IMG/VR virus record: IMGVR_UViG_2061766007_003009
Origin: an uncultured virus (IMG/VR IMGVR_UViG_2061766007_003009)
Taxonomy: Duplodnaviria > Heunggongvirae > Uroviricota > Caudoviricetes
Strand: one strand, 5' to 3'
DNA: 36,144 bases
Shown piece after piece: positions 150 to 35,785 of the stretch (the stretch's first letter is position 1; each line of letters begins with the position of its first letter). Under the pieces are notes generated by a model, which did not search any database, had not been told where the DNA came from, and saw only the letters and a list, made by a program, of their open reading frames with translations. The position numbers were made by a program, and so were the translations under genes.

Positions 150-431
150 TCCCGGAGACCTCCCGGTAGCCCCCTGCATGCCCCCGTATGCCCCAATGGG
201 CCGTAGGCGACCCCGGAGCGACCACGGAGCAACCTACGGGGCGACCGTGGAGCCACCGGGAGATACCTGGGAGTAACCTGGGAGCCACCGGGAGATACCC
301 CGGCAGGTACCTGGATAGCACCGGGAGGTTGACGCGGCATCCCCCATCCATACCCGGTGGGTAACGGTGGCGACCCGTGGTGGATTCCGGGAGGTACCGG
401 GAGGTACCTGGGGTGCTACCGGGAGATACCG
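150..431. repeat. Degenerate ~11-bp tandem repeats (ACC-GGGAG-like) flanking motif copy 1
   Basis: ACC recurs at 210, 221, 232, 244, 255, 265, 276, 287, 297, 309, 320 and 396, 406, 418, 428. Confidence 0.7.
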
Positions 432-785
432 NNNNNNNNNNNNNNNNNNNNNNNNNNNNNNNNNNNNNNNNNNNNNNNNNNNNNNNNNNNNNNNNNNNNN
501 NNNNNNNNNNNNNNNNNNNNNNNNNNNNNNNNNNNNNNNNNNNNNNNNNNNNNNNNNNNNNNNNNNNNNNNNNNNNNNNNNNNNNNNNNNNNNNNNNNNN
601 NNNNNNNNNNNNNNNNNNNNNNNNNNNNNNNNNNNNNNNNNNNNNNNNNNNNNNNNNNNNNNNNNNNNNNNNNNNNNNNNNNNNNNNNNNNNNNNNNNNN
701 NNNNNNNNNNNNNNNNNNNNNNNNNNNNNNNNNNNNNNNNNNNNNNNNNNNNNNNNNNNNNNNNNNNNNNNNNNNNNNNNNNNNN

Positions 786-1254
786 TTGCCTGCTCGATGG
801 TGTCCTCGGGTGCGAGGTCGTAGACCTTGACGAGTTTGCCGTTCTCGTCCACGGTATTGACGGTGGCGACGAAGGCATCCGGGGTGGGNNNNNNNNNNNN
901 NNNNNNNNNNNNNNNNNNTTCGGATAGGCGTTCCTTGATGTCGTCGGCGGTCTCCTGGAACTCGTCCTTGAGGGAGTCGGTTTCCTCGGAGAGGCTGTCG
1001 ATTTTCCCGGAGAGTTCGTCCCAGGCGTCCTGTTCCTGTTTCTTCCTGCTACCCCATTTCGGGAGGTGGAAGGCCCAGGGGGAGCCGACTGCCTTGACGA
1101 AGGCGGCCACCGCGAGGATGACGATTACCGCGTAGACGGCGACGGTTTCCACGATGGTGGTCGGGGAGGCCTGGCCGGATACGATGAGGTAGGTGTTGAA
1201 CCCTGCGACAGCGAGGACTGCGAGGGCGACTGTGTAGATGAGGGTCTTAATCAT
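786..1254 (-). CDS. Membrane protein, two N-terminal TM helices plus acidic coiled coil; 3' end in gap
   Basis: MIKTLIYTVALAVLAV..., AAGGAG RBS, motif copy at 1321. Confidence 0.75.
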
Positions 1255-1344
1255 GGTTGACTCCTTTTGTTAAAAAAAAATTTTCGCTGGATGGTATATG
1301 CCAGGGGGTTGTGTCCCGGTCATCCCCCATCCGTACCCGGTGGG

Positions 1345-1854
1345 TTACTTGAGCATCCTGTCGNNNNNNNNNNTAGCCTCTTGAGGAACCTGGGGTCCTT
1401 CCGGGAGGGGAAGGGGAGTTGCTCGATGGGGATTCGGGAGAGTTCGGCCTCCTTCTTGAGGCGGATTTCCTCGGCCTTTGCCTGGGCGGCCATCTCCTGG
1501 AGTTGGAGGAAGTGCTGGTGCGCGTCGTCGGCGGAGGTGTAGTTGGCCTTGGAGAGCGTACCGGTGGAGCAGTTCCCGCAGGATACCGGGAAGCCCTTGA
1601 AGGTACGGGAGTAGTGGAGGTCCTTCCCGCAGGAACAGCGGTAGGGGTGCGGGAGGCCGAAGAGCATCGCGAAGCACTCGTCCACGCGGGCGCCGTGGTC
1701 ATGGAACACGTGGTCCTCGAAGGAGCGCTTCGGGAAGGGGGCGCGGCAGAGGGGGCAGTGGATGGTGGTNNNNNNNNNNNNNNNNNNNNNNNNNNNNNNN
1801 NNNNNNNTGGGTGACGTACTGCGGCTTCGGGGTGGTTATGTACTTGAGTTGCAT
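1345..1854 (-). CDS. Zinc-finger protein (C2H2-like plus C4-like), spans two gaps
   Basis: ATG 1854 (MQLKYIT) after AAGGAG; CPLC..HVFHDH, CSCG, CGNC; ends DRMLK-TAA abutting motif copy 1321. Frames joined across N gaps. Confidence 0.7.
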
Positions 1855-1974
1855 GGTTGGCTCCTTGTGTAAATTTCGATTTACAAAATTAAAAAATATT
1901 TCTTGGGTTATTGCCGGTATGCCCCCGGGAGGCTCCCGGGGCATCCCCCATCCGTACCCGGTGGGTTACCGGGT

Positions 1975-2292
1975 CTATGCCGGGAAGCATGCGGTGGCTG
2001 CCTCGGTTTCCGACAGGACGAAAACCTGGTCGCTCTCGGGGTTGCGGAGGTAGACTGTACCGTCCTGGCAGACGTGTTCCACCTCGCAAGTCTCTCCGTC
2101 GCAGCATACCGGCCCGTCGAAGTCGTCTGCATACAGGTCGAACCAGTCGCTGCCGGAGTCGTCCTCCGTATGCACCAGTAGGTCGCCGCATCTTGTACGG
2201 CGTCCGTTGACGCTTTCCTTGAGGGTGTCCCACAGGGTAGCGAGGGATACTCCAACGCGTTCGCCTTCGGTAAACAAAACTTTACTTGCCAT
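1975..2292 (-). CDS. Hypothetical acidic protein
   Basis: 105 aa ORF with AAAGGAGAC RBS; second gene of a two-gene unit. Confidence 0.8.
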   Translation of the reverse strand: MASKVLFTEGERVGVSLATLWDTLKESVNGRRTRCGDLLVHTEDDSGSDWFDLYADDFDGPVCCDGETCEVEHVCQDGTVYLRNPESDQVFVLSETEAATACFPA

Positions 2293-2328
2293 GCTGCTGT
2301 CTCCTTTGTTGAATTGTTATGCCCATAG

Positions 2329-2730
2329 TTACAGGGCGAGGTGGAAATGTGCCGCGACTTCTTCCCTAGCCTTCAATGCACAGGAAATGTCCACGCTGTC
2401 CCCTTTCGGCCACTCCGTCACGGACATGGACACCTCGTCAGTATAGGTTCCGCACTTCCCCGCCATGCGGAAATAGTCGTAGAAGTCCCTGCTCGTAGTC
2501 CACCAGAAGTCACGGCCCATGAGTGTAAAGCGCACCGATATGCACACATGCTTCTCGTCATCGCACCCAGCCTCCGACTCGGTTATCTCCGCTTCCGGCA
2601 GGCAGGCAAGTACCAGTGCTTCCGCGTTCTCGATGACCGAATGCGGAATGGCTATGCTCATGCACAACTTCTTCTCCAATGCAGAAATGCCTGCATTGTC
2701 CTTGACTGTATTCCTTTTTGACTTCTTCAT
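2329..2730 (-). CDS. Hypothetical protein (MKKSKRNT...)
   Basis: AAAGGAGAC RBS; true start lies downstream of the track's motif-derived start. Confidence 0.8.
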   Translation of the reverse strand: MKKSKRNTVKDNAGISALEKKLCMSIAIPHSVIENAEALVLACLPEAEITESEAGCDDEKHVCISVRFTLMGRDFWWTTSRDFYDYFRMAGKCGTYTDEVSMSVTEWPKGDSVDISCALKAREEVAAHFHLAL

Positions 2731-2806
2731 GTTCTTGTCTCCTTTGTTGATACGGGTATCCTCCCGGGGTGTACCGGGAGCATCCCCCATCCGTACCCGG
2801 TGGGTT
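2731..2806 (-). promoter_or_regulatory. Representative copy of the putative bipartite promoter/leader: CCACCGG-N4-GGATGGGGGATG-N20-GATA...AAAGGAGAC-ATG
   Basis: Core 2781-2792, 20-nt hairpin spacer 2761-2780, NATA at 2757-2760, RBS at ~2737-2746, ATG at 2730. The same geometry holds in about 46 copies. Promoter function is inferred. Confidence 0.65.
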
Positions 2807-2807
2807 A

Positions 2808-3331
2808 CTACGAGGCCCTCTCGAGCATGTCGAGGACAACCGAGTGGTTGTGGGACTGGTGGGTGAGGTCGTCGATGGCGTCGGAGTCCACCGAGTCGTA
2901 GTACTCGGAGTCGAAGTCGTCGTTTCCGAAGTACTCGAAGTCCACGTCCTCGTAGCGGTCAACGTCGAGGATGCCGGAGCCGTGGCATTCGCAGCAGGTC
3001 TCCTCGGTGGTAATGGGATTGCCCTCGTCATCCTCCTCCTCGAAGGTGAGGTAGCCGGACCCGTCGCAGTCCGGGCAGGGCTTCGAGAGGGAGACCCTGG
3101 ATACACCCTCGGAGATGAGGCGGGCTGCTGCCAGTGCCTTCCGGGAGGTATCGGAGGTATTTCCGAGTTGCTGCTTGAGGTCTGCGANNNNNNNNNNNNN
3201 NCGTCGAAGGAGCCGTAGGCTTCGATGAGGTCGTCTACGTATCCGTTCATGCAGGCCTGCGCCAGGCCCCCGTTGCAAATCTGGTAGTGGAGGTGGCCGA
3301 GCCATTCGAGTGCGGTAAATTTCCTGTTCAT
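2808..3331 (-). CDS. DMP19/DUF4375-like N-terminus fused to DnaJ-type Cys-rich Zn finger and acidic tail
   Basis: LHYQICNGGLAQACMNGY resembles the DUF4375 'V.NGG..QYF.N' motif; CPDCDGSG...CCECHGSG; frames joined across gap 3188-3201. Confidence 0.6.
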
Positions 3332-3411
3332 GGGTTGTCTCCTTGATTATATGGAGTATCCTCCCGGTATGTACCGGGAGCATCCCCCATCCGTCCCCGG
3401 TGGTATACGGT

Positions 3412-3807
3412 TTACTCTTTCCTGTGTTCCGGGAGTTTCATGTTGTCGGGCTGTGCCTTCTCGATTTCGTCCAGCATCTCGTCCAGGGAGTATTCGTGCT
3501 GCTCGACGGAGGGAGCGTCTTCTCTCCCGACGATTCTCCAGTCCTCGATGATGTACGTGCCGTTGTCGTCACCGGAGCCGTCGAGCGCGGCGAAGGTGTC
3601 GATGCCGATGGAGAGGCCGTCTCCGCCGAAGAAGTTGGCGATGACCTGGGAGAGCCTGGCCCAGCCGTAGCAGTCGGTCTCGGGGGGACGGAAGTTCATG
3701 CGGCGGCAGTATTCGAGGAAGCCCTCGACCGAGTCGCGGCCACCGTTCCAGTGGAGGTAGATTGCGAGGTCCTTCTTCTTGGTTGCGATTACGCAGCGAT
3801 TTCCCAT
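3412..3807 (-). CDS. Conserved phage/MGE hypothetical protein (MGNR...IYLHWNGG)
   Basis: 131 aa ORF, AAGGAGAC RBS; the MGxR..YxHWxG start is typical of MGE hypotheticals. Confidence 0.8.
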   Translation of the reverse strand: MGNRCVIATKKKDLAIYLHWNGGRDSVEGFLEYCRRMNFRPPETDCYGWARLSQVIANFFGGDGLSIGIDTFAALDGSGDDNGTYIIEDWRIVGREDAPSVEQHEYSLDEMLDEIEKAQPDNMKLPEHRKE

Positions 3808-3943
3808 GGTATGTCTCCTTGTTGGGGTGTTGGATTTCTTGTGTGAGTGCTATACCCCCGGTACTCCCCGGGGACATCCCCCATCCGTACCCGGTGGGTA
3901 ACGGGGGAGGATGCCCGGCCGGTACCGGTGATGCCCCCGGGGG

Positions 3944-3978
3944 AAAAGGGAAGCCCCCGGCAGGTACCGGGGGCTTCC
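3944..3978 (-). terminator. Putative intrinsic terminator
   Basis: 12-bp perfect stem GGAAGCCCCCGG/CCGGGGGCTTCC with a short U-run on the minus strand, just after the stop at ~3989. Confidence 0.6.
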
Positions 3979-3988
3979 GAGGAGACAA

Positions 3989-4843
3989 CTAAAAAANNNN
4001 NNNNNNNNTGGCCTTCTCCAGTTCGCCGACGCGTGCCTCCAGTTTTCCGATGCGGTCAGTCGGCATCGGTAACTCCGGGTTGGCAGCGGGGGGAGTACTG
4101 TCGGTCTCGTCTGGCTGGAACTGTCCATCGGGGTCCATCCTGGAGATGGCATCCTTGATGGTGTCCGGGGTGACCACCGTCACGTCCACGTTGTAGCCGT
4201 CGGACGGGTTGATGGACCAGAGGTTGAGCCAATTCCTGTCTTCCTCTAGGCAGAAGTCAACGTGGAAACGCCTGCCTTCGTAATCGAACCAGGCCTCAAT
4301 CCAGCGGGTCGGGTCCTCGTAGNNNNNNNNNNNNNNNNNNNNNNNNNNNNNNNNNNNNNNNNNNNNNNNNNNNNNNNNNNNCCGCTTGCCTTCGTAATCG
4401 AACCAGGCCTCAATCCAGCGGGTCGGGTCCTCGTAGTAGGTCTCGTGCTCGATGTAGGTTGCACCCGGGATGTTCTCCGCGATGAACCTGGCGGCGAGTT
4501 TGTCTATACGGCGGGACCGTTCGTTGGTTTCCTGTTCCGGCTTCTCGGCGAGGATGTCGTACATGGTGTCCTCGATTCCACCGGCAGGTTCCTGGTGGAC
4601 AGCGGGAGCAGCATCGCGGAGTTCCTGGATGAGGTCAAGGTAGGTTTCCTTGGAGAATACGTTGAGCATGACGTAGGTTCCTACGCGGTATGCCCCGGAC
4701 TCCCCGGCGGACAAGCCAGTGGCGTAAGGCTTGCTGCCGATGATGCGTACGGCCTCCCTGGCGTTATCCCAGTTATCGAACTTGAGGATTGCGCTGTAGT
4801 CGCACTGGCTGTACTTGTAACTGGAAAGAATGTCGAAGTTCAT
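3989..4843 (-). CDS. Hypothetical protein, short paralog of 5908-7836
   Basis: MNFDILSSYKYSQCDYSAILKF vs MEFDIIATQEHSHADFSALLAF; RBS AAAGGAGAC; contains gaps. Confidence 0.8.
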   Translation of the reverse strand: MNFDILSSYKYSQCDYSAILKFDNWDNAREAVRIIGSKPYATGLSAGESGAYRVGTYVMLNVFSKETYLDLIQELRDAAPAVHQEPAGGIEDTMYDILAEKPEQETNERSRRIDKLAARFIAENIPGATYIEHETYYEDPTRWIEAWFDYEGKRXXXXXXXXXXXXXXXXXXXXYEDPTRWIEAWFDYEGRRFHVDFCLEEDRNWLNLWSINPSDGYNVDVTVVTPDTIKDAISRMDPDGQFQPDETDSTPPAANPELPMPTDRIGKLEARVGELEKAXXXXXF

Positions 4844-4964
4844 GGTGTGTCTCCTTTGGTTGATACTGGTATCCTCCCGGTATCTCCCGGGGGCATCCCC
4901 CATCCGTACCCGGTGGGTTACATCTTGATGTTCCCTATAATCACGTGGGCTGGCCAGTTTCGTG

Positions 4965-5747
4965 CTAAAGTCCGGCTTCCGGAAAGACGAGGGTTGTTCC
5001 GCCGACCGCACCTTCATCAGTGGTGTAATAATCAGCGTTTATAACACGCTTTAGTTCCAAGATAGTTACTTCGGTAGTGAAGCCTTTCTTGTCGCAGTGC
5101 TCGACAACGTCATAAAACTTGTTATAGAGGAACTCTCCCACGGCACGCTTGACTGCGGAATAGTCTACTTGCCGTACGATAGGTTTGTTCTTCTTCAATC
5201 GGTCGTATTCTGCGTCGATGATGGCGACCGCTTCACGGAAGCGGGTTGCGGTTAACTTTTCGTTAGGGATGTACGGCAACCGCTCTAAGTCATAGCTGAA
5301 TTTGAATGTGGTCTTGCCCTTGTCGCTATACTTGACCGGCATAAAGAAAGCGGTATCGTAGTTATCTATGGTAGCGATGAGAAATTTTCCCTTGAATACG
5401 TGCATATAGCGACTTGGCCAGGATGTCTGGATGAACACCAGGCCATCTTTACTGGTGATACCAGCCAGATTTACACCATTATAGTTGTCTATGGGCGTAT
5501 TACCTACATAAAATACCCTGTGATAGGTTTTCTTATCCGGACCGACCACTTCCAACGAATAGTATTCGCCATAGTTAGTGTTACCTTTCTTGGGCATGAC
5601 AGCATGACCGTCCGGCGCAGACACAGTTCTGACCGAGTCAAGACCGACTTCACGATGGATGTCGTTGCACGAATAGTTGTATGACTGGATTTGCTTGATG
5701 AACTTAACGCCACTGATGCCGTAGTTGTTTGATTTCTTGGTTGCCAT
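4965..5747 (-). CDS. Hypothetical protein (MATKKSNNYG...), AT-richer than neighbours
   Basis: 260 aa ORF, CAGGAGAC RBS, motif copy 5803. Confidence 0.8.
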   Translation of the reverse strand: MATKKSNNYGISGVKFIKQIQSYNYSCNDIHREVGLDSVRTVSAPDGHAVMPKKGNTNYGEYYSLEVVGPDKKTYHRVFYVGNTPIDNYNGVNLAGITSKDGLVFIQTSWPSRYMHVFKGKFLIATIDNYDTAFFMPVKYSDKGKTTFKFSYDLERLPYIPNEKLTATRFREAVAIIDAEYDRLKKNKPIVRQVDYSAVKRAVGEFLYNKFYDVVEHCDKKGFTTEVTILELKRVINADYYTTDEGAVGGTTLVFPEAGL

Positions 5748-5907
5748 GGTTGTCTCCTGTTGGTTGTTGTATGTACAGTATGCACCCGGTATCTCCCGGG
5801 AGCATCCCCCATCCATACCCGGTGGGTAACGGTGGCGGCATTGCCGGGCATGCGGGATTCAGTTGGATGAAGAAGGGGCCTCCCGGGAGATNNNNNNNNN
5901 NNNNCAA

Positions 5908-7836
5908 CTAAATCTTCTTCTTGATTTCCTTGATTTCCTTCTGGACCTGGTCCATGAGGTTCTCGAGTTTGGTTACCCGGGTCTCGATGGAGGGTTCTTC
6001 CTCAATAGTTTCTTCCTCAAGAGTTTCTTCCTCAATAGGTTCTTCGGCAAGACGCTTGAGGTTTTTAGGGCAGATTTCATAATCGACAACGTAGTCGGAA
6101 CTGAGGTTACCTTCCTTGTCTATGTTACGGAATTCGTACCATACCTCATGGGTGTCGCAGTTGCGGTTTATTTCAAGCCGGAATCCGTTGCCCTTGTACG
6201 TGAAGAAGAGTGCGTACCAACCATATTCATTGGAAGCCCCTTCAGTCTCGGAGGAGTCGTAGGTAGCCTCCGGGAGGTACTGCTTGAGGAATTCGATGCC
6301 TGCTTCCGCGTAGGTGGAATTATCCTTGTCGCTTATGTGCTTGTCGGTCGGGGCGGACTTGAGAATTTCGATAATTTTTTCTTCCGTATTAACGATTTTC
6401 TCTTCCGTCTTGGCGAAGTGGCCTTCCTTGTCCACGGACTTGAGAAATTCCTTGATGCCTTCCGGAGTGGTGACTACCGAATCAATGATTTCGTAGTTCT
6501 TTTTCGCGGAGCAGAGGAACAGTTTCACGGTTCCGTTATCGTACACGACGAAGTCGATGTGGTAGTTCTTCCTCTTGTGGAAGAACCAGAGTTCAACCCA
6601 TTCGCAGTCGTCGCCGTAGCGTTCGCAGTCGCCGGAGCAGTCGTAGACACAATCGTCGAACTTGACTTTCGGGAGGTAGTCATCCAGGTAGGCCATGGCG
6701 GCCTTGTTGAGGGATTTCTTATTCTTCTTGAATATCTTATCAGCGTCCTCGATGGAGTTATTGTCGAGGTCGAGTTTCTTCAGAATTTCAAAAATTTTTA
6801 CGGCATTCCCGTTGAAAATGTGCTCATCGTCAACGGAGTCGATGGCAAACTTGATGTTGTCGGCAGTGACCACGCAGTAGGCACTATCGGAACCATCCTC
6901 GTGCACGGACCAGAGACGGATTTCATTCTTCTTGCTGGTAACGAGGAACTCGAGCCAGAACTCATTCCCGTTGTAGTAGAACCATACGTCAGCCCAATTG
7001 CCCTTGCCGTAGCGCTCAATATACCAATCCTTCAGGTCGGGGTCACAGTCGTAGCGCTCGAAGCCATAGGAACCACATTCGGTATCGCCGATGTTGGTTG
7101 CTCCCGGTATGTGCTTCGTGATGAATGCCTTGGCGGCGGCCAGGAGTGTCGCCTTGCTTGTCTTAATGTCGCTTTCAGTGGCCTGGCTCAGGTTCGGGAT
7201 GCTATTTACCAGGTTGAAGATTGCTTCTTCCGGGTTGCCGGAGAACTGCTGGTCAATGAAATCATCAAAATTTTTCTTGACATCCTCCTCGTTGCCCTCG
7301 TAGATGGAGAAACTCGGTTTACGCCAGTCCGGGATTCCGGATGCGAATACCTTGATTCGGGTATCCTCACCGTCACATAACAACTTGGCCCGGAAAACCT
7401 CCCCGCGGTAGGTGATGATGAACCAACTTTCTTCTTCATCGTGTTCCATGGCCTCCACGGTTGCTCCCGGGAGTACCTTGGTGAAGAACGGGATGGCGAA
7501 GTCGCGAGCCTCACTGTACGGGGCATCGATGTCGACGAGGGAGGTCCACATCTCCTTGTAGAGTTTGGAAATGTCGTCATCGGTTGCGGGAACGGGGAGT
7601 TTCTTCAGCATGTCGATGATTTCCCCGTATGCTGCCTTGGAGTACGTGTTGAACATGACGTGCTTACGCACCTGGAAGGCGCCGGACTGACCCGGCGTGA
7701 GGCTCTGCGTGTTTGCCCACTGGCTGTCGTTGATTGCCTTGGTGGATATCGTGGCTTCTTCAGACGAACTGAATGCGAGCAGGGCCGAGAAGTCCGCGTG
7801 GGAATGTTCCTGTGTAGCAATGATGTCGAATTCCAT
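5908..7836 (-). CDS. Large acidic protein with ~4 internal domain repeats and C-terminal coiled coil
   Basis: 642 aa from the RBS-supported ATG; repeat pattern A..F/Y....LP.a.......W....F.Y.G..F. Confidence 0.85.
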   Translation of the reverse strand: MEFDIIATQEHSHADFSALLAFSSSEEATISTKAINDSQWANTQSLTPGQSGAFQVRKHVMFNTYSKAAYGEIIDMLKKLPVPATDDDISKLYKEMWTSLVDIDAPYSEARDFAIPFFTKVLPGATVEAMEHDEEESWFIITYRGEVFRAKLLCDGEDTRIKVFASGIPDWRKPSFSIYEGNEEDVKKNFDDFIDQQFSGNPEEAIFNLVNSIPNLSQATESDIKTSKATLLAAAKAFITKHIPGATNIGDTECGSYGFERYDCDPDLKDWYIERYGKGNWADVWFYYNGNEFWLEFLVTSKKNEIRLWSVHEDGSDSAYCVVTADNIKFAIDSVDDEHIFNGNAVKIFEILKKLDLDNNSIEDADKIFKKNKKSLNKAAMAYLDDYLPKVKFDDCVYDCSGDCERYGDDCEWVELWFFHKRKNYHIDFVVYDNGTVKLFLCSAKKNYEIIDSVVTTPEGIKEFLKSVDKEGHFAKTEEKIVNTEEKIIEILKSAPTDKHISDKDNSTYAEAGIEFLKQYLPEATYDSSETEGASNEYGWYALFFTYKGNGFRLEINRNCDTHEVWYEFRNIDKEGNLSSDYVVDYEICPKNLKRLAEEPIEEETLEEETIEEEPSIETRVTKLENLMDQVQKEIKEIKKKI

Positions 7837-10217: not shown

Positions 10218-10541
10218 TTACTTGTCGAACTCCCCGTCCAGCAGGTTCGTTTCCTTCGCCTTCTCTTCCTGGTACTTTTCCAGGACGGTGTCCTCGATGT
10301 GCTCGCGGAGCCTGCGGGTGATGGGGAAGGACACGCTGCGCAGGTCATCGTCCGGGCTTTCCTGCGAGATGGGGAATCCCACGTACAGCCCGTTGAAACC
10401 GTCCATGATACGGAGGTCGCGAATGACCAACTGGTCGTTCAGCACAATCTTGGCGAGACCAAGACGCTTATTATTGTCCGCGTGGTCGAACGGGTAGACC
10501 TCGCAGTGGGTGACGGTAAGCAATTCGTATTCTTTATCCAT
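10218..10541 (-). CDS. spoVG: SpoVG-family nucleic-acid-binding protein
   Basis: LAKIVLNDQLVIRDLRIMDGFNGLYVGFP...FPITRRLREHIEDTVLEKY matches the SpoVG signature. Confidence 0.85.
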   Translation of the reverse strand: MDKEYELLTVTHCEVYPFDHADNNKRLGLAKIVLNDQLVIRDLRIMDGFNGLYVGFPISQESPDDDLRSVSFPITRRLREHIEDTVLEKYQEEKAKETNLLDGEFDK

Positions 10542-13257: not shown

Positions 13258-13695
13258 TTACCAGCGGACCCCGTTGTAGTGGAATCCGTCATCATCGGTG
13301 TGAATGTCGTGTACGATGGTTGCCTTCCTCATTCGGGCGACCTGGGCATCGAAGATGGCCCTGGTCTCCTCCCGGGAGAGCGCCCTGGCAGCCCTCTGCT
13401 CCTCGGTACCTATGTACTTGGGGTCCCTGTCGGGTGCCGCCGAGTACATGGGTCTTGGGTAGTTGTACTCGGTCTCGTACCTGCCCCACGACATGAGGTC
13501 GTTGTAGCAGTAGAGGCAGTTCACCATGCGCATGGCCTGGAGGGCATAGAGCCGGTGTATCTCCTGCGGTGTCTGGAGGTAGAAGTACGCGAAGTCGGCC
13601 TGCTGGTCGCGTGCCTGCGCACGGGCCTCGATTTCGTCCGTCTCCTTCTCTATCTCGGGGTCGGATAGACCCAGTCTGCCCAGTTCAAGTGCCAT
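13258..13695 (-). CDS. Hypothetical protein (MALELGRLG...)
   Basis: AAAGGAGAC RBS; stop abuts motif copy 13234. Confidence 0.8.
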   Translation of the reverse strand: MALELGRLGLSDPEIEKETDEIEARAQARDQQADFAYFYLQTPQEIHRLYALQAMRMVNCLYCYNDLMSWGRYETEYNYPRPMYSAAPDRDPKYIGTEEQRAARALSREETRAIFDAQVARMRKATIVHDIHTDDDGFHYNGVRW

Positions 13696-16467: not shown

Positions 16468-16543
16468 AATGTTGTCTCCTTTGTTATGATACGGGTATTC
16501 TCCCGGTAGGTACCGGGAGCATCCCCCATCCTGTCCCGGTGGG

Positions 16544-18669: not shown

Positions 18670-18676
18670 AGTCGGC

Positions 18677-21893: not shown

Positions 21894-22008
21894 AGCAGTC
21901 TCCTTGTTGTAAACTATATATATGTCTCGGTATCTCCCGGGGCATCCCCCNNNNNNNNNNNNNNNNNNNNNNNNNNNNNNNNNNNNNNNCCCGAATCCAG
22001 TTCAGGGG

Positions 22009-22043
22009 AAAAGAGTTGGCCCCCGGACGAACCGGGAGCCAAC
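22009..22043 (-). terminator. Putative intrinsic terminator in a gene-less unit
   Basis: Minus strand GTTGGCTCCCGG-TTCGT-CCGGGGGCCAAC-TCTTTT. Confidence 0.65.
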
Positions 22044-22127
22044 CGTTGGCTGCTATGGAGAAACTTTACGACACGGGTATGCCTCCCGGTAGTCCCCGGG
22101 AGCATCCCCCATCCGCTCCCGGTGGAA

Positions 22128-23178: not shown

Positions 23179-23403
23179 TTATCCTCCCGGTAGTTCCGGG
23201 AGGCATCCCCCATCCGTCCCCGGTGGGTTGGCCTTCTCCTTCCGTTCCAGTCCATCTTCCTCTCGGCCTCGAATCCACTGGAAAAAAGATTTTTTGCAGT
23301 CGCCGCAGATGATTTTCTCGGAACCGCCCACCTTGATTATAAGGAACTGGGCGTATTCTCCCGACGTATCAAACTCCTGACGGCAGTAAGGGCACGTTCT
23401 CAT
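23179..23403 (-). CDS. Small C4 zinc-finger protein
   Basis: CPYC...CGDC; ATGA coupling to the upstream gene; reads through motif copy 23204. Confidence 0.65.
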   Translation of the reverse strand: MRTCPYCRQEFDTSGEYAQFLIIKVGGSEKIICGDCKKSFFQWIRGREEDGLERKEKANPPGTDGGCLPELPGG

Positions 23404-23780
23404 TGCCAGTCCTCCCCGTAGAGCCTGCGGAGTTCCCCGAGGGTCTTCTTCAGGGGTTCCACGGAGGTATCACGCTCGATGTACATGCCGAACGGGAGTT
23501 TCAGGTCGAACAGTTCCTTCAGGCTGATGTCCCCGAGTTCCAGCCCGTAGCCCAGCGTGGAGGCAGAGAACACAATCATGTTCTCCTCGACGTGGTCGGC
23601 ATCCTTGTGTTCCTGGTCGGTGAAGAACATGGAGTCCTCCAGCACGTACCAGGTTCCGCGTCCGCACGGGTTGAAGTAGCGGGCGATAACACGCTTCTCG
23701 TCCTTCGGGGTTCCGTCGGTAGAGGCGTACGGGGTCTTGGCGAGAGCCTTGATGATGTCCTGTGTCAGTCTTTTCTGCAT
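23400..23780 (-). CDS. DUF2958-like protein
   Basis: RYFNPCGRGTWYVLE...GLELGDISLKEL...IERD pattern. Confidence 0.75.
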   Translation of the reverse strand: MQKRLTQDIIKALAKTPYASTDGTPKDEKRVIARYFNPCGRGTWYVLEDSMFFTDQEHKDADHVEENMIVFSASTLGYGLELGDISLKELFDLKLPFGMYIERDTSVEPLKKTLGELRRLYGEDWQ

Positions 23781-25646: not shown

Positions 25647-25681
25647 AAAGGGAAAGCCCCCGGGGGTTACCGGGGGCTTCC
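25647..25681 (-). terminator. Putative intrinsic terminator
   Basis: AAGCCCCCGG-N6-CCGGGGGCTT stem just after stop 25699. Confidence 0.55.
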
Positions 25682-27401: not shown

Positions 27402-27439
27402 AAAAAAGAAAAAAATTCCCGGGATTGCTCCCGGGAGTT
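27402..27439 (-). terminator. Putative intrinsic terminator
   Basis: CCCGGGA stem with long minus-strand U tract after stop 27448. Confidence 0.65.
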
Positions 27440-27954: not shown

Positions 27955-28122
27955 GTCAGCCTCCTTTCGGTATATACCATATGCCTCCCGGAACCTTCCG
28001 GGAGCATCCCCCATCCGCTCCCGGTAGATACCGGGAAGAAAAAATTTGGAAAGCCCCATCCCGGGGCCTTCCCGTCATTTACCCGTGGTATCCCCCGGTA
28101 CGCCCTTCGTTGCCACGTGCCA

Positions 28123-29858: not shown

Positions 29859-29993
29859 AAGCAACCTACCCGATTTTGCAGGTTTCGTGGGCAACCTGCG
29901 TCAGCCCGTCCTCATTTCCTATCCATATAGGAACCTCCCGGGGCATCCCCCATCCGTACCGGGTGGACTACCGGGAGGATGCCGACCCGGCGG

Positions 29994-30272
29994 CTATTCG
30001 CCATCCCCGAAGATGGCCTCAAGAACCTTACGGCAGAGGTCGTTCAGTTCAGTCAGTTTCCGGTCAAATTCAGCCCTGCGCTCGGCCACGCAACGCTCCG
30101 CACCCTCAATTACGCTCTTGGGGGCACGCATATCCTTGAGCCGGACAACCAGTTCCTCGTAGTGCTTCATCTGCCTGTACACCCGGCAGAGTTCTGCCTT
30201 CTTCTCCTCGTATACGTCCGGGTGCTTGGCCTTGCGTTCGTTGTGGGCGGTTCTGCGTGTCTTGTTTGCCAT
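29994..30272 (-). CDS. Helical hypothetical protein (MANKTRR...)
   Basis: 92 aa, AAAGGAG RBS. Confidence 0.75.
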   Translation of the reverse strand: MANKTRRTAHNERKAKHPDVYEEKKAELCRVYRQMKHYEELVVRLKDMRAPKSVIEGAERCVAERRAEFDRKLTELNDLCRKVLEAIFGDGE

Positions 30273-30542
30273 ATTGTACTCCTTTGTTATGGCGGTTAAA
30301 CATCTCTCTACTTACTTATCGTATCGGTGCAGGCTTTTGTAAAGTATCTCGCTAAAATTTTTTTCTCGGCTCTCCTGCGCCCTCTACTATTATATCGCCA
30401 CGTATAGCCATTTTGACAACCTACTGCAAGAAAAAATATTGTAAATGTTTCTTTACCTGTAGCATCCCCCATCCGCTCCCGGTAGACACCGGAAGCCCCC
30501 CGGGGAGTCCCCGGGAGGTTCCTTGAGAGGTAGGTGTAAGTG

Positions 30543-30827
30543 CTAGAACAGCCCGCAGATGACCTTCGCCATCTCGTCAAACTCGGCAGTGACCTCGTCC
30601 TTGCTCATCTCGTCAGGTGCCGAAAATCCAGGGGTAGGACTGCGGGCGTCAATGAAGATACGGGTGCCGTTAACCTTGTACTGCGCGCTGCGGATACCTA
30701 CGGAACTGCTCGCAATGCTATCCCCGACGGTTACCATGAACTTGCAGGTCTTGTTGGTGTCGGTGTTGCGTACCGCCAAGCAAACCATGCCGGGGCGGAA
30801 GGGGAAAGTCTTTGTCTCGTATGCCAT
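30543..30827 (-). CDS. Hypothetical protein
   Basis: 94 aa, GGAGG RBS, motif copy 30877. Confidence 0.75.
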   Translation of the reverse strand: MAYETKTFPFRPGMVCLAVRNTDTNKTCKFMVTVGDSIASSSVGIRSAQYKVNGTRIFIDARSPTPGFSAPDEMSKDEVTAEFDEMAKVICGLF

Positions 30828-30958
30828 ATAGCCTCCATTCGGTTAAAAATTTTATCCTGCCGGATATCCCCCGGGGCATCCCCCATCCGCTCCCGGTAGA
30901 CACCGGTGGCAGAGGACGGGGAGTCCCCGGGAGGTTCCTTGAGAGGTAGGTGTAAGTG

Positions 30959-31255
30959 CTACTTGACCCGAAGGGTCTCGCCACAGCCCGTGAACCACGG
31001 GGGGTTGTTCACTGCCTCGTCCCAGCCAAATCCGCCCTCATTGATAACCTGCTCAAGTTCGTCAGCGGAAAGGTTGTTGGAGTCGTCGTTGGAGTCGGTA
31101 ATGCCTAGTTCACTGCTGACCACGTAGAATCCGCCCCCGTCATAGTCGTACATGAGCGTCATGCCCTTGTCAGCGAGCGAGGCGTTGAAGTCGTTCCACA
31201 GGGCGACCGCCTGCTTGCGTTGCTCTTCGGTTATGTGAGTGAAAGTCTTTGCCAT
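30959..31255 (-). CDS. Acidic hypothetical protein
   Basis: 98 aa, GAGAGGT RBS. Confidence 0.75.
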   Translation of the reverse strand: MAKTFTHITEEQRKQAVALWNDFNASLADKGMTLMYDYDGGGFYVVSSELGITDSNDDSNNLSADELEQVINEGGFGWDEAVNNPPWFTGCGETLRVK

Positions 31256-31319
31256 AGTAACCTCTCTTGTTGTATTTTAATTATTCTCCCGGTAGTTACC
31301 GGGAGCATCCCCCATCCGT

Positions 31320-31368
31320 ACCGGGTGGCTACCGGGAGCAACCGGGAGCCACCGGGGACCCGGGTGGC
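31320..31368. repeat. ~10-bp tandem repeats ACCGGG(A/T)G...
   Basis: accgggtggct accgggagca accgggagcc accggggacc cgggtggct. Confidence 0.7.
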
Positions 31369-31676
31369 TACGTGCAGGGCTCCACTTCAGCCGAGTAGTC
31401 CCCTAGCGTCAGCAGGACGAAGGACTCGCCCGAGTCCGGCTCGGTCAGTCGCAGGATGTGGTGCCCGCTTGCGAAGTAGTCCACGTACTCGTCGTCTTCC
31501 TCGTCATACCCGTCATCAAGTTTCACGATAATTGAACTTTCTGCCCCGTCTTCCCATAGCACGCTAGGGTAGATACGGAGTTTCTCGTCCGGTTCAATAT
31601 TGTCCAACGCCTGCGTGAGGGCGTCCATATCGTAGGTAATCCTGTACCCACCGAAAATAATTGTCTTGCGTTCCAT
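31368..31676 (-). CDS. Strongly acidic hypothetical protein
   Basis: 102 aa, GAGAGGT RBS. Confidence 0.75.
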   Translation of the reverse strand: MERKTIIFGGYRITYDMDALTQALDNIEPDEKLRIYPSVLWEDGAESSIIVKLDDGYDEEDDEYVDYFASGHHILRLTEPDSGESFVLLTLGDYSAEVEPCT

Positions 31677-31788
31677 AGCATACCTCTCTGTTACATTTTA
31701 ATTATCCTCCCGGTATCCACCGGGAGCATCCCCCATCCGCACCCGGTGGATACCAATCTACTCCGCGGGCCTGAACTCTCTGTCCCAG

Positions 31789-31829
31789 AAAAAAGAAAAA
31801 GAAAAAAGCCCCGCCTTTCGGCAGGGCTT
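31789..31829 (-). terminator. Intrinsic terminator
   Basis: AAGCCCTGCC-GAAA-GGCGGGGCTT followed by a long U tract on the minus strand. Confidence 0.8.
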
Positions 31830-31845
31830 GGCAGGGAAATTCCCA

Positions 31846-32328
31846 TTATTTCACGTTCAGCACCCTCGCTTTCGGGGTCTTGACAAAGTTCGCACCCACA
31901 GCCTCAACGAGTTTCGCCTCGTCAATGCCTGCAATTTTCATCGCCTGCGTGGGGCTCAAGCCCACAGTGAACTCCGCCACGTCCTTGCCGCAGAGTTCGG
32001 CCAAAGCCCTAGCGGCCGCCACGCAGTCGCTGAACTTGGTCTGATAGGTCTGCGCCTCCCAAGACGCACACGCAGGGAGCGACTCGGGGGCGACCTCCAT
32101 ACAAGCCTTGAGACCCGCCTGAATGGACTCCGCCACCACCTTGCACCAACGCATATACGTGGCGAGGTCGCTGATGGACTCAGCAAGGGCTGCACGCTTC
32201 TCCACGAAATCGGGTGCGGTCTTGTCCGCCTCCGTAATGAACTTGTAAGCCTCTTTTGCCCCATCAGTCAAGCCCGAAGGCGTAACGATGTAGTCAAGGG
32301 GTTGAACGAATGTTTCCTTTTTAGCCAT
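31846..32328 (-). CDS. Hypothetical protein (MAKKETFV...)
   Basis: GAGAGGT RBS, motif copy 32379. Confidence 0.8.
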   Translation of the reverse strand: MAKKETFVQPLDYIVTPSGLTDGAKEAYKFITEADKTAPDFVEKRAALAESISDLATYMRWCKVVAESIQAGLKACMEVAPESLPACASWEAQTYQTKFSDCVAAARALAELCGKDVAEFTVGLSPTQAMKIAGIDEAKLVEAVGANFVKTPKARVLNVK

Positions 32329-32460
32329 AAGCACCTCTCTTGTTGTATATATCCTATGCCACAATAAAGTTCTTGGAACATCCCCCATCCACGCCGGGTG
32401 GACTCCCGGTACCTCCCGGGATGCAAGAGGAATCCCCCGGGAAACTCCCGGGAGAATCTT

Positions 32461-32838
32461 CTAGAGGTTCTCAAGTTCGTCCTCTATGAACTCCTTCTGC
32501 AAGCCCTCCCAAAGGGCGGAGAACATCGGCGCCATCATCATGAAGCGGACGGTATCCACCACCTCCTTCGGATTGCCCTGCACCATGCTGGCGAGCAGGT
32601 TCATGCCCGCCACCCTGCCCGTATGCGTGGCGAGGTAGAGCGGGATGCGGTTACCGCACTCCGGATAGAGTTCGTAGAGCCTGCGGAGAATGTACCTGTC
32701 ACGCTCAAGGGCTTTCTCTATGCCCCCCAATGCGATGTTCAACGGCTCCCCGTCATTCTGCTTGCGGATGTCCTCAAAGTCCTCCCGCATATTCTCAACG
32801 ATTTCATCAAGTTCAACCTTGTCCTCTTCGCTCAACAT
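32461..32838 (-). CDS. Hypothetical protein (MLSEEDK...)
   Basis: GGGAGG RBS, motif copy 32908. Confidence 0.75.
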   Translation of the reverse strand: MLSEEDKVELDEIVENMREDFEDIRKQNDGEPLNIALGGIEKALERDRYILRRLYELYPECGNRIPLYLATHTGRVAGMNLLASMVQGNPKEVVDTVRFMMMAPMFSALWEGLQKEFIEDELENL

Positions 32839-33007
32839 ACTAGCCTCCCTGCTATCGGGCGGACACCCGCCCTCATATCCCCTATGCCACCCCGTCCGCT
32901 CCCGGGGCATCCCCCATCCGCACCGGGTGACACCACGTCCTCCCGGCAGGGGACACGGAAGGCCTCCCGGGGGGTACCGGGAGGCTCTCCTTGACGCACC
33001 GCGTGAC

Positions 33008-33208
33008 CTAGCGGAAGTCAGCCCAGCAGGTCGCACCGGAGCACCCGAGCAGGTCGTCGGGAACGTCAATGCCCTTGTCCTTGAAGGCCTGCACCGCCTC
33101 GTCAAAGTCCTCCGGATACTCGCCCTTGATAAGGCGGAGGGTGTTCTCCAACTGCTTGCGGTTCGGGTTGCGGATTCCCTTGACGAAACTTGCGACACTA
33201 GGATTCAT
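33008..33208 (-). CDS. Small hypothetical protein (MNPSVASF...)
   Basis: GAGGT RBS, motif copy 33280. Confidence 0.7.
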   Translation of the reverse strand: MNPSVASFVKGIRNPNRKQLENTLRLIKGEYPEDFDEAVQAFKDKGIDVPDDLLGCSGATCWADFR

Positions 33209-33404
33209 GGTCTTACCTCTATTTTGTTGGGCGGACACCCGCCCGACAATATCAGTATGCCACAATAAAATTATTGGAACATCCCCCATCCATACCGGGT
33301 GGATACCGTGCCGCCTGCCCTGAAGCATCCTGGAAGCAGTCCCGGTACCATACAAGAAACCTCCCGGCAGTTACCGGGAGGCTCGCAGGCAGGTATTAAA
33401 ATTT

Positions 33405-34016
33405 TTACTTGTTCATTGTACTGCGGAACAGGTCGGGGTCCATACGGCACATACTCGTATATCCGCACTTTCCGACCACGATATGGTCAATTACGGAAAT
33501 CTTCATTATTTTTCCCGCGTCACAGATTAAGCGGGTAATTGCCCAATCCTCTTTGCTGGGTTCGGTGGAACCGCTCGGGTGGTTGTGGGCAATCATAATG
33601 CTCACTGCGTTGTCCAAGAGGGCGGTACGGAATACCTCCCGCGGAGCGATAGGGGTCTGGTTCACGAGTCCCACCGTCACGTCGTGCTTGTTGATGACGT
33701 GGTTTGCGGCGTCAAGCGTCAGCACCACGAAGTGCTCCTGCGGCTCGAACTTCAGCCCGCAGAGGTACGGCATCGCATCCTCCGGTGCTATCACGCTCTT
33801 CGCCTCGGTGCCCACCACGTAACGGGCCGACAGTTCACAGCAGGCGATAATCTTCTCCGCGGTGCTCTCCCCGACTCCCCGGAAGTTCATCAGGTTCTCC
33901 TTGCTCGGGATACCCGTGCAACCTGCAAGGTAGTCAGTGACCCTGCGGGCGAGGTCAACGTCGCCCAAGATAGCCCCGAAGAGCCTTTCCGTTTTCTGTG
34001 CGTTCTCTATATCCAT
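33405..34016 (-). CDS. radC: RadC-family JAB-domain protein with HhH motif
   Basis: RGVGESTA (HhH); QEHFVVLTLD; PREVFR; AHNHPSG...PS..D; IDHIVVG. Confidence 0.92.
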   Translation of the reverse strand: MDIENAQKTERLFGAILGDVDLARRVTDYLAGCTGIPSKENLMNFRGVGESTAEKIIACCELSARYVVGTEAKSVIAPEDAMPYLCGLKFEPQEHFVVLTLDAANHVINKHDVTVGLVNQTPIAPREVFRTALLDNAVSIMIAHNHPSGSTEPSKEDWAITRLICDAGKIMKISVIDHIVVGKCGYTSMCRMDPDLFRSTMNK

Positions 34017-34132
34017 AGTCTTACCTCTCTATACCCTATATACAACAAGGACCTCCCCGTGCCATCCCCCATCCACTCCGGGTGGTTACGGGGAATGGCC
34101 CGCGAAGGTCCCATGTTCCTCCAGCCGATGTC

Positions 34133-34216
34133 CTAACCGTGATACCCCCCAATGCGTCCAAATTCGCTTTCTAGGTTGTAGCGGTGACGGATTCCGGTGA
34201 GAATTATTCTATGCAT
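34133..34216 (-). CDS. Possible 27-aa peptide MHRIILTGIRHRYNLESEFGRIGGYHG
   Basis: Strong AAGGAGAC RBS; I see no other RBS-supported ORF between motif copies 34338 and 34063. Confidence 0.4.
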   Translation of the reverse strand: MHRIILTGIRHRYNLESEFGRIGGYHG

Positions 34217-34395
34217 TTTTTGTCTCCTTGTGGATATGGCGTGAAAATGGATTCCTTCAGGGTGCGGCTACACTATGGTCTGCCTCTACACCGGAGTCCA
34301 TACAATCTTCTATATGGCAGAAAAAATTTCCCCCGGGCATCCCCCATCCGTACCGGGTGGATACCGGGGCTGCCGCCGGGGATGCCCCCGGGAGG

Positions 34396-34707
34396 CTACT
34401 TGGTCGCCTCCTCGTACTTGGCGAGCACCTCGCGCTCAATCAGCGCCCGGAGTTCCCCGTCCATCGGCACCACGACGCTCTTGAACTCCTCGCCCTTGTA
34501 GAACGGGTCAAGGGGATAGGACACGAACAGCCCGCTGTTCCCCTCCATAATGCGGAGACCCCTGACCTGAAGGCAGTCGTTCAGCACAATCTGGGCAAGA
34601 CCCCTCATGTGCCCGAGGCTCGGGCCTTCCTTGAACGGGAACACGAGCACCTGCGTGACCCTTATGCCCTTGACACTATCGTTTTCGCTAAAAATATTTT
34701 CACCCAT
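34396..34707 (-). CDS. spoVG: SpoVG-family nucleic-acid-binding protein (second copy)
   Basis: LAQIVLNDCLQVRGLRIMEGNSGLFVSYP...LRALIEREVLAKY. Confidence 0.85.
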   Translation of the reverse strand: MGENIFSENDSVKGIRVTQVLVFPFKEGPSLGHMRGLAQIVLNDCLQVRGLRIMEGNSGLFVSYPLDPFYKGEEFKSVVVPMDGELRALIEREVLAKYEEATK

Positions 34708-34910
34708 AGGAACCTACCTCTTTCTGACGGACACCCGCCAACATATACACTATGCCGAATAAAAAATTTCCAATCATCCCCCATCCTCTCCCGGTAGACN
34801 NNNNNNNNNNNNNNNNNNNNNNNNNNNNNNNNNNNNNNNNNNNNNNNNNNNNNNNNNNNNNNNNNNNNNNNNNNNNNNNNNNNNNNNNNNNNNNNNNNNN
34901 NNNNNNNNNN

Positions 34911-34934
34911 AGCCCCCGCCTTGCGGCAGGGGCT
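34911..34934 (-). terminator. Putative terminator hairpin
   Basis: AGCCCC(C)GCC-TTGC-GGC(A)GGGGCT after stop 34954; any U tract would lie in the gap. Confidence 0.5.
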
Positions 34935-34953
34935 CATCTAGGCAGGTTAGTGT

Positions 34954-35190
34954 CTACGGGAGGTCGTCCGTACTGCGGAACGTCCAGATACGCTCGCTCA
35001 TGCCACATCCGATGGAGTAGAACAGCGTGAACTCAAGCGAGTCATTCTCGCTGAACACGTGCGGGAGCATGGAAACAAGTTTTTTCTTCGCAGAAAGATA
35101 ATCGGTATCGCTGACGTGCAGTTCGGTCACGTTATAGTAGCGGATACCATCGGTATGGACATTGTGTACGTGAAAGCAAAAAGAAATCAT
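34954..35190 (-). CDS. Hypothetical protein (MISFCFHV...)
   Basis: GAGGCAGG RBS, motif copy 35260. Confidence 0.7.
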   Translation of the reverse strand: MISFCFHVHNVHTDGIRYYNVTELHVSDTDYLSAKKKLVSMLPHVFSENDSLEFTLFYSIGCGMSERIWTFRSTDDLP

Positions 35191-35290
35191 AGTCAACCTG
35201 CCTCTTATGGGCGGACACCCGCCCGACACTATGTATATGCACCTAGTACCCTCCCGGGGCATCCCCCATCCGCTACCGGTGGAATCCCGG

Positions 35291-35646
35291 TTACTGGCGG
35301 ATGCCTGGCCGGGGCCTGACCGGAGGGNNNNNNNNNNNNNNNNNNNNNNNNNNNNNNNNNNNNNNNNNNNNNNNNNNNNNNNGTCCTCCTGTTCGTCCTC
35401 GGAGTCCTCCTGTTCGTCCTCCGGTTCGTCCTTGTGGAACACCCACACGCCTACAATCGGGCGGCCAACACCCCAAGCCGCACGCACGACTGCGGCACAG
35501 AACCCCACGAGCACCACCGCCCACGCAACAGCGAGTTCAATGGCGGCAGAGAGCCCCCCGATGTGCCCCGTAACGAACAGGGCAGTTTCAGCCACGAGGG
35601 CAACCACGAAAGCACCCAAGATAGCAACACAAAGCGTCTTACGCAT
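35291..35646 (-). CDS. Two-TM membrane protein with acidic EDEQED repeats; end uncertain (gap)
   Basis: MRKTLCVAILGAFVVALVAETA...ELAVAWAVVLVGF. Confidence 0.65.
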
Positions 35647-35785
35647 ACGCACCTACCTTCTTTGGGCGGACACCCGCCCGACAATATTACTATTCCATAC
35701 GTACCCTCCCGGAACATCCCCCATCCCCACCGGGTGGACTTACGGGAATCTCCGGGAGGATGCGGGAGCGGGCCCGCAAGCCCGT

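Follow-up and report, generated by a model that had tools for sequence, protein, structure and literature searches.

Co-oriented intergenic modules as putative PeSL-type regulatory cassettes in a stretch of uncultured phage DNA

We examined a stretch of 36,144 nucleotides from an uncultured virus of the Caudoviricetes (IMG/VR record IMGVR_UViG_2061766007_003009), hereafter the window, in which a conserved block of ~50 nt, hereafter the module, recurs in a single orientation on the gene (minus) strand between an upstream stop codon and a downstream ATG (314..35738; 47 exact co-oriented modules and one half-masked module, with the array extending past both window ends). The modules are probably composite regulatory cassettes of the promoter early stem-loop (PeSL) type, set in a hyperplastic accessory region of a cattle-rumen jumbo phage that appears to be distantly related to T4. 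In the mechanism we propose, read-through transcripts from the upstream gene would fold into hairpins, providing attenuation or termination together with protection of the 3' end, and RNA polymerase would restart in the downstream half of the module to give a short leader with a strong Shine-Dalgarno (SD) sequence. Upstream recognition would fall to a 12-mer within the module, the ATA and A-T boxes would play the -10-like part, and the hairpin DNA would set a constant spacing (21–22 nt). Since these boxes are unlike the sigma-70 type used elsewhere in the lineage, their recognition would probably need a phage-encoded sigma factor or activator. As direct repeats of ~50 nt, the modules could also serve as crossover points for phage homologous recombination, which would homogenise the core within a genome and move gene-plus-module units between co-infecting relatives.

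The 12-mer, CATCCCCCATCC, occurs exactly 47 times in the 36,144 bases, always on the plus strand and never on the minus strand, against a mean of 0.01 in 100 dinucleotide shuffles. A search of both strands for near-copies returned none with one mismatch and two with two mismatches, both unrelated. The first copy lies at 338..349, and the 12-mers start at 338, 1321, 1942, 2781, 3381, 3875, 4894, 5803, 7891, 8445, 9721, 10194, 10595, 11828, 13234, 13744, 14759, 16520, 17643, 18160, 22103, 22482, 23204, 23830, 24336, 24835, 25576, 26163, 26576, 27339, 28005, 28509, 28974, 29521, 29944, 30463, 30877, 31306, 31727, 32379, 32908, 33280, 34063, 34338, 34775, 35260 and 35715; around each, the module extends from about start-24 to start+23 and is read on the minus strand. 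At the forty-eighth module (21943..21989, minus strand), CATCCCCC is readable at 21943–21950 before a run of masked bases (21951–21989) hides what remains of the 12-mer as well as the CCACC box; the downstream half, SD and ATG (21893) are undamaged. The window contains 32 such masked N runs of 10–852 bases (e.g. 432–785, 18887–19738), which break several genes and reading frames and cover part of at least two modules (21951–21989 and 34800–34910). Without the forty-eighth copy the 12-mers are spaced 275–3943 nt apart (median 554); a preliminary description of this DNA had reported 48 co-oriented copies delimiting units of 0.16–3.8 kb, which fits once the half-masked copy at 21943 is counted. 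The same description noted an adjoining C(C/G)GGT beside an invariant 12-mer, and we indeed found the box ACC(G/C)GG next to the 12-mer in 47/47 copies, in which A, C, C and the final G never vary and the site that does is G in 39 copies and C in 8; altogether 17 positions are invariant across all 47 copies. Within the window, the single orientation is contrary to the two-way scatter of a repetitive extragenic palindromic (REP) element, which had been raised there as the pattern that would speak against an ordered array.

Read on the gene strand, the module starts with (G)TA(A/G) or a stop codon, followed by CCACC(G/C)GG, three nucleotides and GGATGGGGGATG; its 3' part comprises a 7-bp hairpin (H2, typically CTCCCGG-N4-6-CCGGGAG), G(C/G)ATA, an A/T box ~8 nt further on, AAGGAGA and ATG. 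CCACC and the 12-mer are invariant among modules, and ATA follows the 12-mer by 20–23 nt in 46/47 copies, a distance (21–22 nt) that is constant even where the hairpin sequence is wholly different. Downstream of 43 of the 47 modules we found an SD sequence and an ATG-initiated open reading frame (ORF) of ≥40 codons, with the ATG placed 45–55 nt after the 12-mer in 31 of these 43. On the upstream side, an open frame of ≥40 codons ends ≤40 nt from the 12-mer at 23/47 copies, and at a distance of 11–13 nt for 12 of them; these ORF ends confirm the earlier observation of minus-strand genes with stop codons abutting the motif (e.g. 10218, 13258, 17666, 22128, 26187 and 28533). Modules take up nearly all intergenic DNA; the module spans the gap from stop to start, and we assign it to its downstream gene. 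In a representative module (16496..16543, minus strand), the CCACCGGG box occupies 16535–16543, the 12-mer 16520–16531, H2 (CTCCCGG..CCGGGAG) ~16500–16519 and ATA ~16496–16498, and SD and ATG (16467) follow. Toward the transcription-upstream end of the window (32379..35738, minus strand) the modules form a subtype with an additional hairpin, GGGCGG..CCGCCC, separating ATA from SD, and with an H2 that is in many copies rich in A and T or divergent.

The hairpins are maintained by compensatory changes, with a preference for G-U pairs on the sense strand. All seven pairs of H2 (7/7) show changes on both sides, the observed covariation was reached by 0/500 shuffles, and pairing is retained in copies where the stem is AT-rich. 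In a second hairpin, H1, CCCACCG is matched to the CGG-A-TGGG part of the 12-mer; 94% of its cells are paired, and G-U pairs number 22 and A-C pairs zero. Taken together, H1 and H2 hold 48 sense-strand G-U pairs versus 15 A-C, and the invariant GGGAUG remains single-stranded between them. The sense RNA fold was more stable than the antisense fold in 45/46 window modules, although these are not independent because they have a common invariant G-rich core. The sense-strand G-U preference clearly shows that the hairpins act as RNA.

We identified relatives of the array by two routes. A motif scan of metagenome contigs gave L122, part of a 284-kb contig, and L123, while the protein profile of one array gene (13258..13695, minus strand) gave three IMG/VR contigs, G001 (116.7 kb; CheckV completeness 41%), G002 (42 kb; 10%) and G003 (203 kb; 52%). 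The query is a core gene of the arrays, without an assigned function and present in all four relatives, whose protein had no sequence match in the PDB and no usable Atlas match. Since L122 and G001 overlap at 99.97% identity, we treat them as one phage, called R. The gene content of R includes T4 gp15, an S77 (gp21-type) prohead protease, a baseplate wedge protein and a gp55-like late sigma factor, and a NAD ligase is found among the phage-identity genes of the relatives, beside T4 gp15 and the S77 prohead protease. G003 encodes a T4-type terminase, 33–35% identical to gp17 of T4-like cyanophages, along with NrdD, NAD-salvage genes, IF3 and two sigma-70-family genes; neither the window nor G001 or G002, all of them incomplete, yielded a homologue of the G003 sigma-70-family gene. 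Judged by these genes, the relatives, which come from rumen and other metagenomes, are jumbo phages of a distant T4 type. The window matches R (L122/G001) at 68–91% nucleotide identity over many genes, and near-identical sequence was detected in bovine-gut metagenome runs (at least 20 runs from at least 14 studies among the matches listed, of which only 2 contain half or more of the sampled words); none of the matching runs listed was an RNA run. Its identity to R and these bovine-gut matches place the window, as judged by similarity, in an uncultured rumen jumbo phage distantly related to T4.

The relatives carry modules of the same architecture built on different cores. We found 39 module copies with (C)CGGGGGATGC on a single strand within 30.8 kb of R, 21 copies with CCCCGTGGAATAC in L123, and in G002 and G003 a module consisting of one long three-tier hairpin that runs from CCCACCGTGT to ACA(T/C)CGTGGG; the core among these related jumbo phages is thus GGATGGGGGATG, CCGGGGGATGC, CCCCGTGGAATAC or a long covarying hairpin. 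In all module types CCCACCG comes straight after the upstream stop and GG-N-AT(A/G) stands at the end, followed ~12 nt later by AAGGAGA and ATG. Covariation in the G002/G003 hairpin amounted to 67 double-change cells versus 25 expected (0/500 shuffles as high), and one of its pairs is G-U in 33/46 sequences; the tested structure came from single-sequence folds, which favours it over the slid controls, and RNAalifold returned no consensus structure for these modules. Where orthologous genes could be compared, each was preceded by its own genome's core (8/8 unmasked pairs), and the part from ATA to ATG remained similar between the orthologues. The core is thus homogenised within each genome, and its uniformity could come from gene conversion between modules or from selection by a genome-specific reader. 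In each relative the array is confined to a hyperplastic region whose genes have no known function; modules in G001 are limited to positions 711–18740 of 116.7 kb, plus one stray copy, and the last array gene there has a module in front and none behind. Scans of IMG/VR with the window-, R- and L123-type cores matched 1, 48 and 101 stretches, respectively, and among the matches listed (80 of the 101 for the L123 type) only G001 was multi-copy. The motif also matched at least 120 stretches of bacterial and archaeal genome contigs; those listed were single chance matches except for two low-complexity ones, and none was an array.

Gene content and order differ strongly between the relatives. Of the 58 ORFs called in the window, homologues were identified for 23 in R, for 13 in L123, for 5 in G003 and for 3 in G002, at identities from 27% to 94% and with several genes out of order; 35 of the 58 have no homologue in the closest relative. 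Where the window and L122 are homologous at the DNA level, the blocks are bounded by modules and are arranged in a different order in the two sequences. The clearest recent exchange is a patch of ~98% identity between window and L122, covering DNA whose products are 94% and 89–90% identical. Its right end falls exactly in a CCCACCG box and its left end ~75 nt inside a gene, a pattern typical of homologous rather than site-specific exchange. Foreign-type modules were likewise present: in L123 a single gene lies between two window-type modules amid 21 of its own type, and R has 1 window-type module among 39, while the window itself contains no foreign-type module. Contigs from four other rumen runs end at modules, as repeats do in assemblies, and are not usable as evidence; module-to-module contig joints had sides of 21–35 nt, too short to count, and the missing cover of one run (X5) at 24529–25433 is not readable as a deletion.

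Outside the arrays, the relatives use other promoter signals. A sigma-70-like motif, TTGCCA-N17-(TGC)TATATT(TG), is present in 21 copies in G001 and 41 in G003, and a near-invariant TTTTGCTATATTTG constitutes a sigma-70-like extended -10, some copies having TTGCCA 17 nt upstream (G001, L139–L143, e.g. 59987, 44418 and 32524; G003, L127–L136; reverse strand). The sigma-70-like motif often lies directly behind a terminator hairpin, and TTTTGCTATATTTG with its terminator is, by its layout, a second and classical PeSL-like composite in the same phages. A T4-late-like motif, TATAAAC(T/A), also occurs outside the arrays in G001 and G003. The sigma-70-like motif is absent from the window, L122 and L123, and the late-like motif has a single window copy, which does not stand at the head of a gene, and is missing from L122 and L123. 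Because neither motif stands at array genes, we regard the module as a separate, third class of upstream element that is restricted to the arrays. Two other assignments were abandoned: a reading of the 12-mer as a T4 MotA box (TGCT), owing to a misfit in spacing, and the naming of a host through TTGNTANNTTTG, which was enriched in one Bacteroidales metagenome-assembled genome (MAG) of five genomes (55 versus 9 in the control) and not in a Fibrobacteraceae MAG, and which proved to be a sigma-70-like extended -10 promoter, so that no host is assigned.

At five places in the window, a gene is separated from the following module by a terminator-like hairpin with a T run, and L122 has a very clear example. 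The five window hairpins are on the minus strand, at 31806..31829 (between gene stop 31846 and module 31727), 28048..28072 (just upstream of module 28005), 27417..27436 (with T7, between gene 27448–27813 and module 27339) and 25652..25681 (12 bp with a weak T tail, between gene 25699–26112 and module 25576), and in a gene-less unit at 22018..22114, where a full module (12-mer 22103) is followed by ~40 nt, a terminator-like hairpin with T run (22033–22018) and the next module. A conserved CCATAGCAGCCA(A/C)C followed by a strong terminator was seen behind this ORF-less module (22018–22100) and behind one in L122 (~9881–10010, reverse strand); the conserved stretch may represent a small RNA or what is left of a deleted gene.

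Several observations weigh against the proposal that the modules are PeSL-type cassettes. On the gene strand, 0/47 modules have a sigma-70 -35/-10 consensus, and the relatives have clear TTGCCA-N17-TGC-TATATT promoters outside the arrays, the promoter within the module being proposed from its position only. In G002 and G003 the module is almost entirely taken up by the hairpin, and space for a separate promoter is not evident; the sense fold in G002 is stabler than the antisense fold in just 16/33 modules, and the G-U preference is equally explained by a role in RNA only. Breakpoints at modules are partly trivial and coincidence is expected, because modules occupy nearly all intergenic DNA, and one end of the best recent exchange falls within a gene. 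Finally, the window itself has no hallmark phage gene, and its phage identity comes from the 68–91% similarity to L122/G001. On the other side, the T4-type relatives and the hyperplastic, mosaic region support the second of two models in the preliminary description, that of a promoter-type repeat array reshuffled by homologous recombination and conceptually like PeSLs.

The strongest competing possibility, which we nevertheless judge rather unlikely, is that the module functions as RNA only: long polycistronic RNAs would arise from a few outside promoters, and the modules would be sites of RNA processing or stability, either comparable to the RNase III hairpins of the T7 early genes or recognised by a phage endoribonuclease. 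Each mRNA released by cutting would be monocistronic, with a hairpin protecting its 3' end and a leader starting near G(C/G)AUA. The covarying hairpins with their sense G-U preference, the conserved G-U pair in 33/46 G002/G003 modules and the lack of sigma-70 boxes are all consistent with such a role, the two-tier G002/G003 hairpin with its internal loop resembles RNase III substrates, and the invariant single-stranded GGGAUG could be a handle for a protein. However, at least five terminator-like hairpins lie upstream of modules and no other promoter motif is found in 36 kb, so that genes downstream of them would have no source of transcription. The gene-less unit of module, terminator and module is likewise hard to fit to a processing site, and the strict 21–22-nt spacing from 12-mer to ATA resembles a bipartite site at the DNA level. 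A different account, compatible with PeSL-type cassettes and in itself improbable, makes the 12-mer and CCACC the DNA or RNA sites of one phage regulator that switches the whole array, in the manner of the one-orientation stoperators of cluster A mycobacteriophages and with a specificity that would vary between related phages. This would suit a core that is uniform within a genome and different in relatives even before orthologues, the one orientation of all copies, the 17 positions invariant in 47/47 copies, which exceeds usual promoters, and the nucleic-acid-binding SpoVG-family genes inside the arrays of the window (two) and G001. Yet no regulator was identified, foreign-type modules persist in L122 and L123, gene conversion alone can produce uniformity within a genome, and the phages look virulent and T4-type, so that no lysogeny in need of silencing would be expected.

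We consider it very unlikely that an integron-like, site-specific system with an outside recombinase moves gene-plus-module units at a fixed crossover point, which was the first model in the preliminary description. The units are indeed co-oriented, 0.16–3.9 kb long and furnished with one module each; one exchange boundary lies exactly after CCCACCG, the L123 gene sits between two foreign-type modules, the G002/G003 modules have the form of an imperfect inverted repeat, conserved at its ends and variable in the middle, and G001 encodes a serine recombinase ~40 kb from its array. Against this, the other end of the exchange lies ~75 nt inside a gene, as for homologous recombination, expression signals are held at a fixed distance from the start codon, and no multi-copy occurrence was found among the matches listed for the at least 120 bacterial and archaeal stretches. 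The GTTRRRY/RYYYAAC cores of attC were not seen in the consensus by eye, with no attC model run, and this, together with a spacing of 275–3943 nt filled by protein-coding genes, upholds the earlier statement that the motif is neither an attC site nor a repeat of the CRISPR (clustered regularly interspaced short palindromic repeats) type. A gene for a recombinase, sigma factor or RNA polymerase, which that description had suggested looking for at the array ends, was not among the 49 window ORFs in a Pfam scan, and the array runs beyond both ends of the window. A dispersed repeat of the REP or MITE (miniature inverted-repeat transposable element) type, either selfish or neutral and without a role in expression, would account for the high copy number and the palindromic parts and is scarcely credible: it is contradicted by the single orientation and by the spacing, all copies being intergenic and at a fixed distance from start codons, and in relatives the arrays are confined to one genome region and keep their architecture with different sequences.

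Building on the PeSL-type reading, we entertain a further idea that is doubtful at present, namely that each phage expresses its array through a private code held in the module. The invariant core would be read by a specificity factor that the phage encodes (sigma factor, activator or RNA-binding protein), this core would be switched between related jumbo phages, and the array would form a separate regulon insulated from host-type promoters and from co-infecting arrays, with imported cassettes converted to the resident code.

The genes of the array provide few clues to function. Only 6/49 window ORFs scored above the Pfam cut-off (a RadC-like JAB, two SpoVG, DUF2958, DUF1281_C and DUF7336), 43/49 have no family, and PHROGs added little beyond Pfam. 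Rfam returned no families and ARAGORN no tRNAs for the window, and megablast of positions 22000–34000 against 50,697 phage records gave no match. On the minus strand we located a RadC-like JAB-domain gene with module 34063 at its head (33405..34016; PF04002, E 2.7e-38), two SpoVG-family genes (10218..10541, PF04026, E 3.1e-17; 34396..34707, PF04026, E 2.5e-16), a DUF2958 gene within the patch ~98% identical to L122 that ends in the CCCACCG box of the next module (23400..23780), and a DUF1281_C (Api92-like) gene conserved in L122 and L123 (24867..25526). SpoVG proteins bind DNA and RNA in bacteria, and the array SpoVG-family proteins are candidates for a factor acting on the modules; a SpoVG-family gene was also seen in the G001 array (L138, 1125–1862), and the SpoVG genes had no PHROG family match. 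Pentapeptide-repeat proteins are encoded in or near arrays (G001 9007–9828, also with DUF5758; G003, L136, 4844–5911) and may mimic DNA, in keeping with a possible part of array genes in anti-defence; together, the RadC-like, SpoVG, DUF2958, DUF1281 and pentapeptide families hint at predicted roles in anti-defence or takeover. A protein segment is duplicated between array units 23861–24286 and 22506–22868 (88% identity over 59 residues).

We also noted features of the relatives that lie apart from the module. G001 and G003 carry multiple TnpB/IS605 OrfB (Cas12f1-like TNB) genes (e.g. L139:10419–11729, L141:13618–14778, L127:1–1207). In G003 an AT-rich insertion breaks the array at 201130–202000 (reverse strand); by eye it contains a zinc-finger-like ORF and a tRNA-like sequence beside a sigma-70-like promoter, and it resembles a mobile insertion of the homing-endonuclease type. 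A palindromic box, CAACACTTTGG(C/G)..ATAGCCAAA, stands upstream of some genes in two relatives (G001 ~341 and ~97294; L125 ~19745) and looks like an operator.

Until now, PeSLs were known from a small number of cultured T4-like phages and were built on host sigma-70 promoters; here the same design of one cassette per gene appears in distant, uncultured rumen jumbo phages with G+C-rich signals that are not of the host type. Such a design would let genes be expressed singly and exchanged between related phages. The point of interest is what reads the G+C-rich, genome-specific core. If this is a phage factor, the arrays would offer tractable, co-evolving cis and trans codes that govern a hypervariable gene region, and a ready signature with which to locate accessory gene arrays in metagenomic phage genomes; if it is not, the modules would still illustrate clearly how regulatory repeats evolve in concert and how phages exchange genes in modular fashion.

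Among known systems, the stoperators of cluster A mycobacteriophages are similar in being a short asymmetric motif present in dozens of intergenic copies in one orientation, with a consensus that differs between related phages. They are, however, bare 13-bp repressor sites of temperate siphophages without hairpins or a fixed distance to start codons, and the module has both. The early region of T7 contains about ten RNase III hairpin sites, which are likewise intergenic, have an internal loop and lie between early phage genes on one strand; unlike these, which lack invariant flanking boxes, the array has one module per gene, invariant boxes and internal terminators. Integron attC arrays share the co-oriented gene-plus-repeat units and, for the G002/G003 type, the imperfect inverted symmetry with conserved ends, but differ in that the window has no IntI-type recombinase among its 49 ORFs and no attC cores by eye, that the setting is a phage, that the SD is at a fixed distance from the start, and that an exchange junction lies inside a gene. 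CRISPR arrays differ in spacing, with protein-coding genes lying between the repeats here. In the literature searched, PeSLs come up in eight papers. A paper on gastrointestinal jumbo phages makes no mention of promoters, hairpins or intergenic elements, and literature searches with the exact motif strings returned only papers whose titles indicate unrelated, non-phage work. The earlier statement that the motif belongs to no described system thus stands for the exact sequence and falls for the kind of element, since PeSL-type cassettes are known.

PeSLs are described in the T4-type phages RB49/phi1, PST/T4 and nt-1/KVP40 (Arbiol 2010, PMC2839356; Comeau 2014, PMC4122927). They run from the stop codon through -35, a stem-loop (poly-G...poly-C, in many cases placed between -35 and -10) and -10 to SD and ATG (PMC2839356; PMC4122927). 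The stem-loop, mostly located between -35 and -10, terminates upstream transcripts and thus combines both roles (PMC2839356), and PeSLs cluster in hyperplastic regions, where they mediate shuffling and mini-circles (PMC2839356; PMC4122927). The module resembles them in its T4-related myophage genome, its span from stop to ATG, its G/C-rich stem-loop between two conserved boxes, its hyperplastic and ORFan-rich setting and its lineage-specific sequence; it may also resemble them in an association with indels, replacements and displaced genes between relatives, although some coincidence is expected where modules occupy nearly all intergenic DNA. It departs from them in having no sigma-70 -35/-10 with N17 spacer and no AT-rich upstream region; in their place stand the G+C-rich boxes CCACC(G/C)GG and GGATGGGGGATG, both invariant, together with a minimal box, G(C/G)ATA. 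The array is also far denser and more uniform than the published cases (48 copies in 36 kb, 17 invariant positions), its core is genome-specific even before orthologues, and its promoter, terminator and mini-circle activities are putative. The relatives use sigma-70-like promoter/terminator composites elsewhere, which makes the module a second, separate class. Because the defining sigma-70 promoter is lacking, we file the module as a variant of the PeSL rather than as a member.

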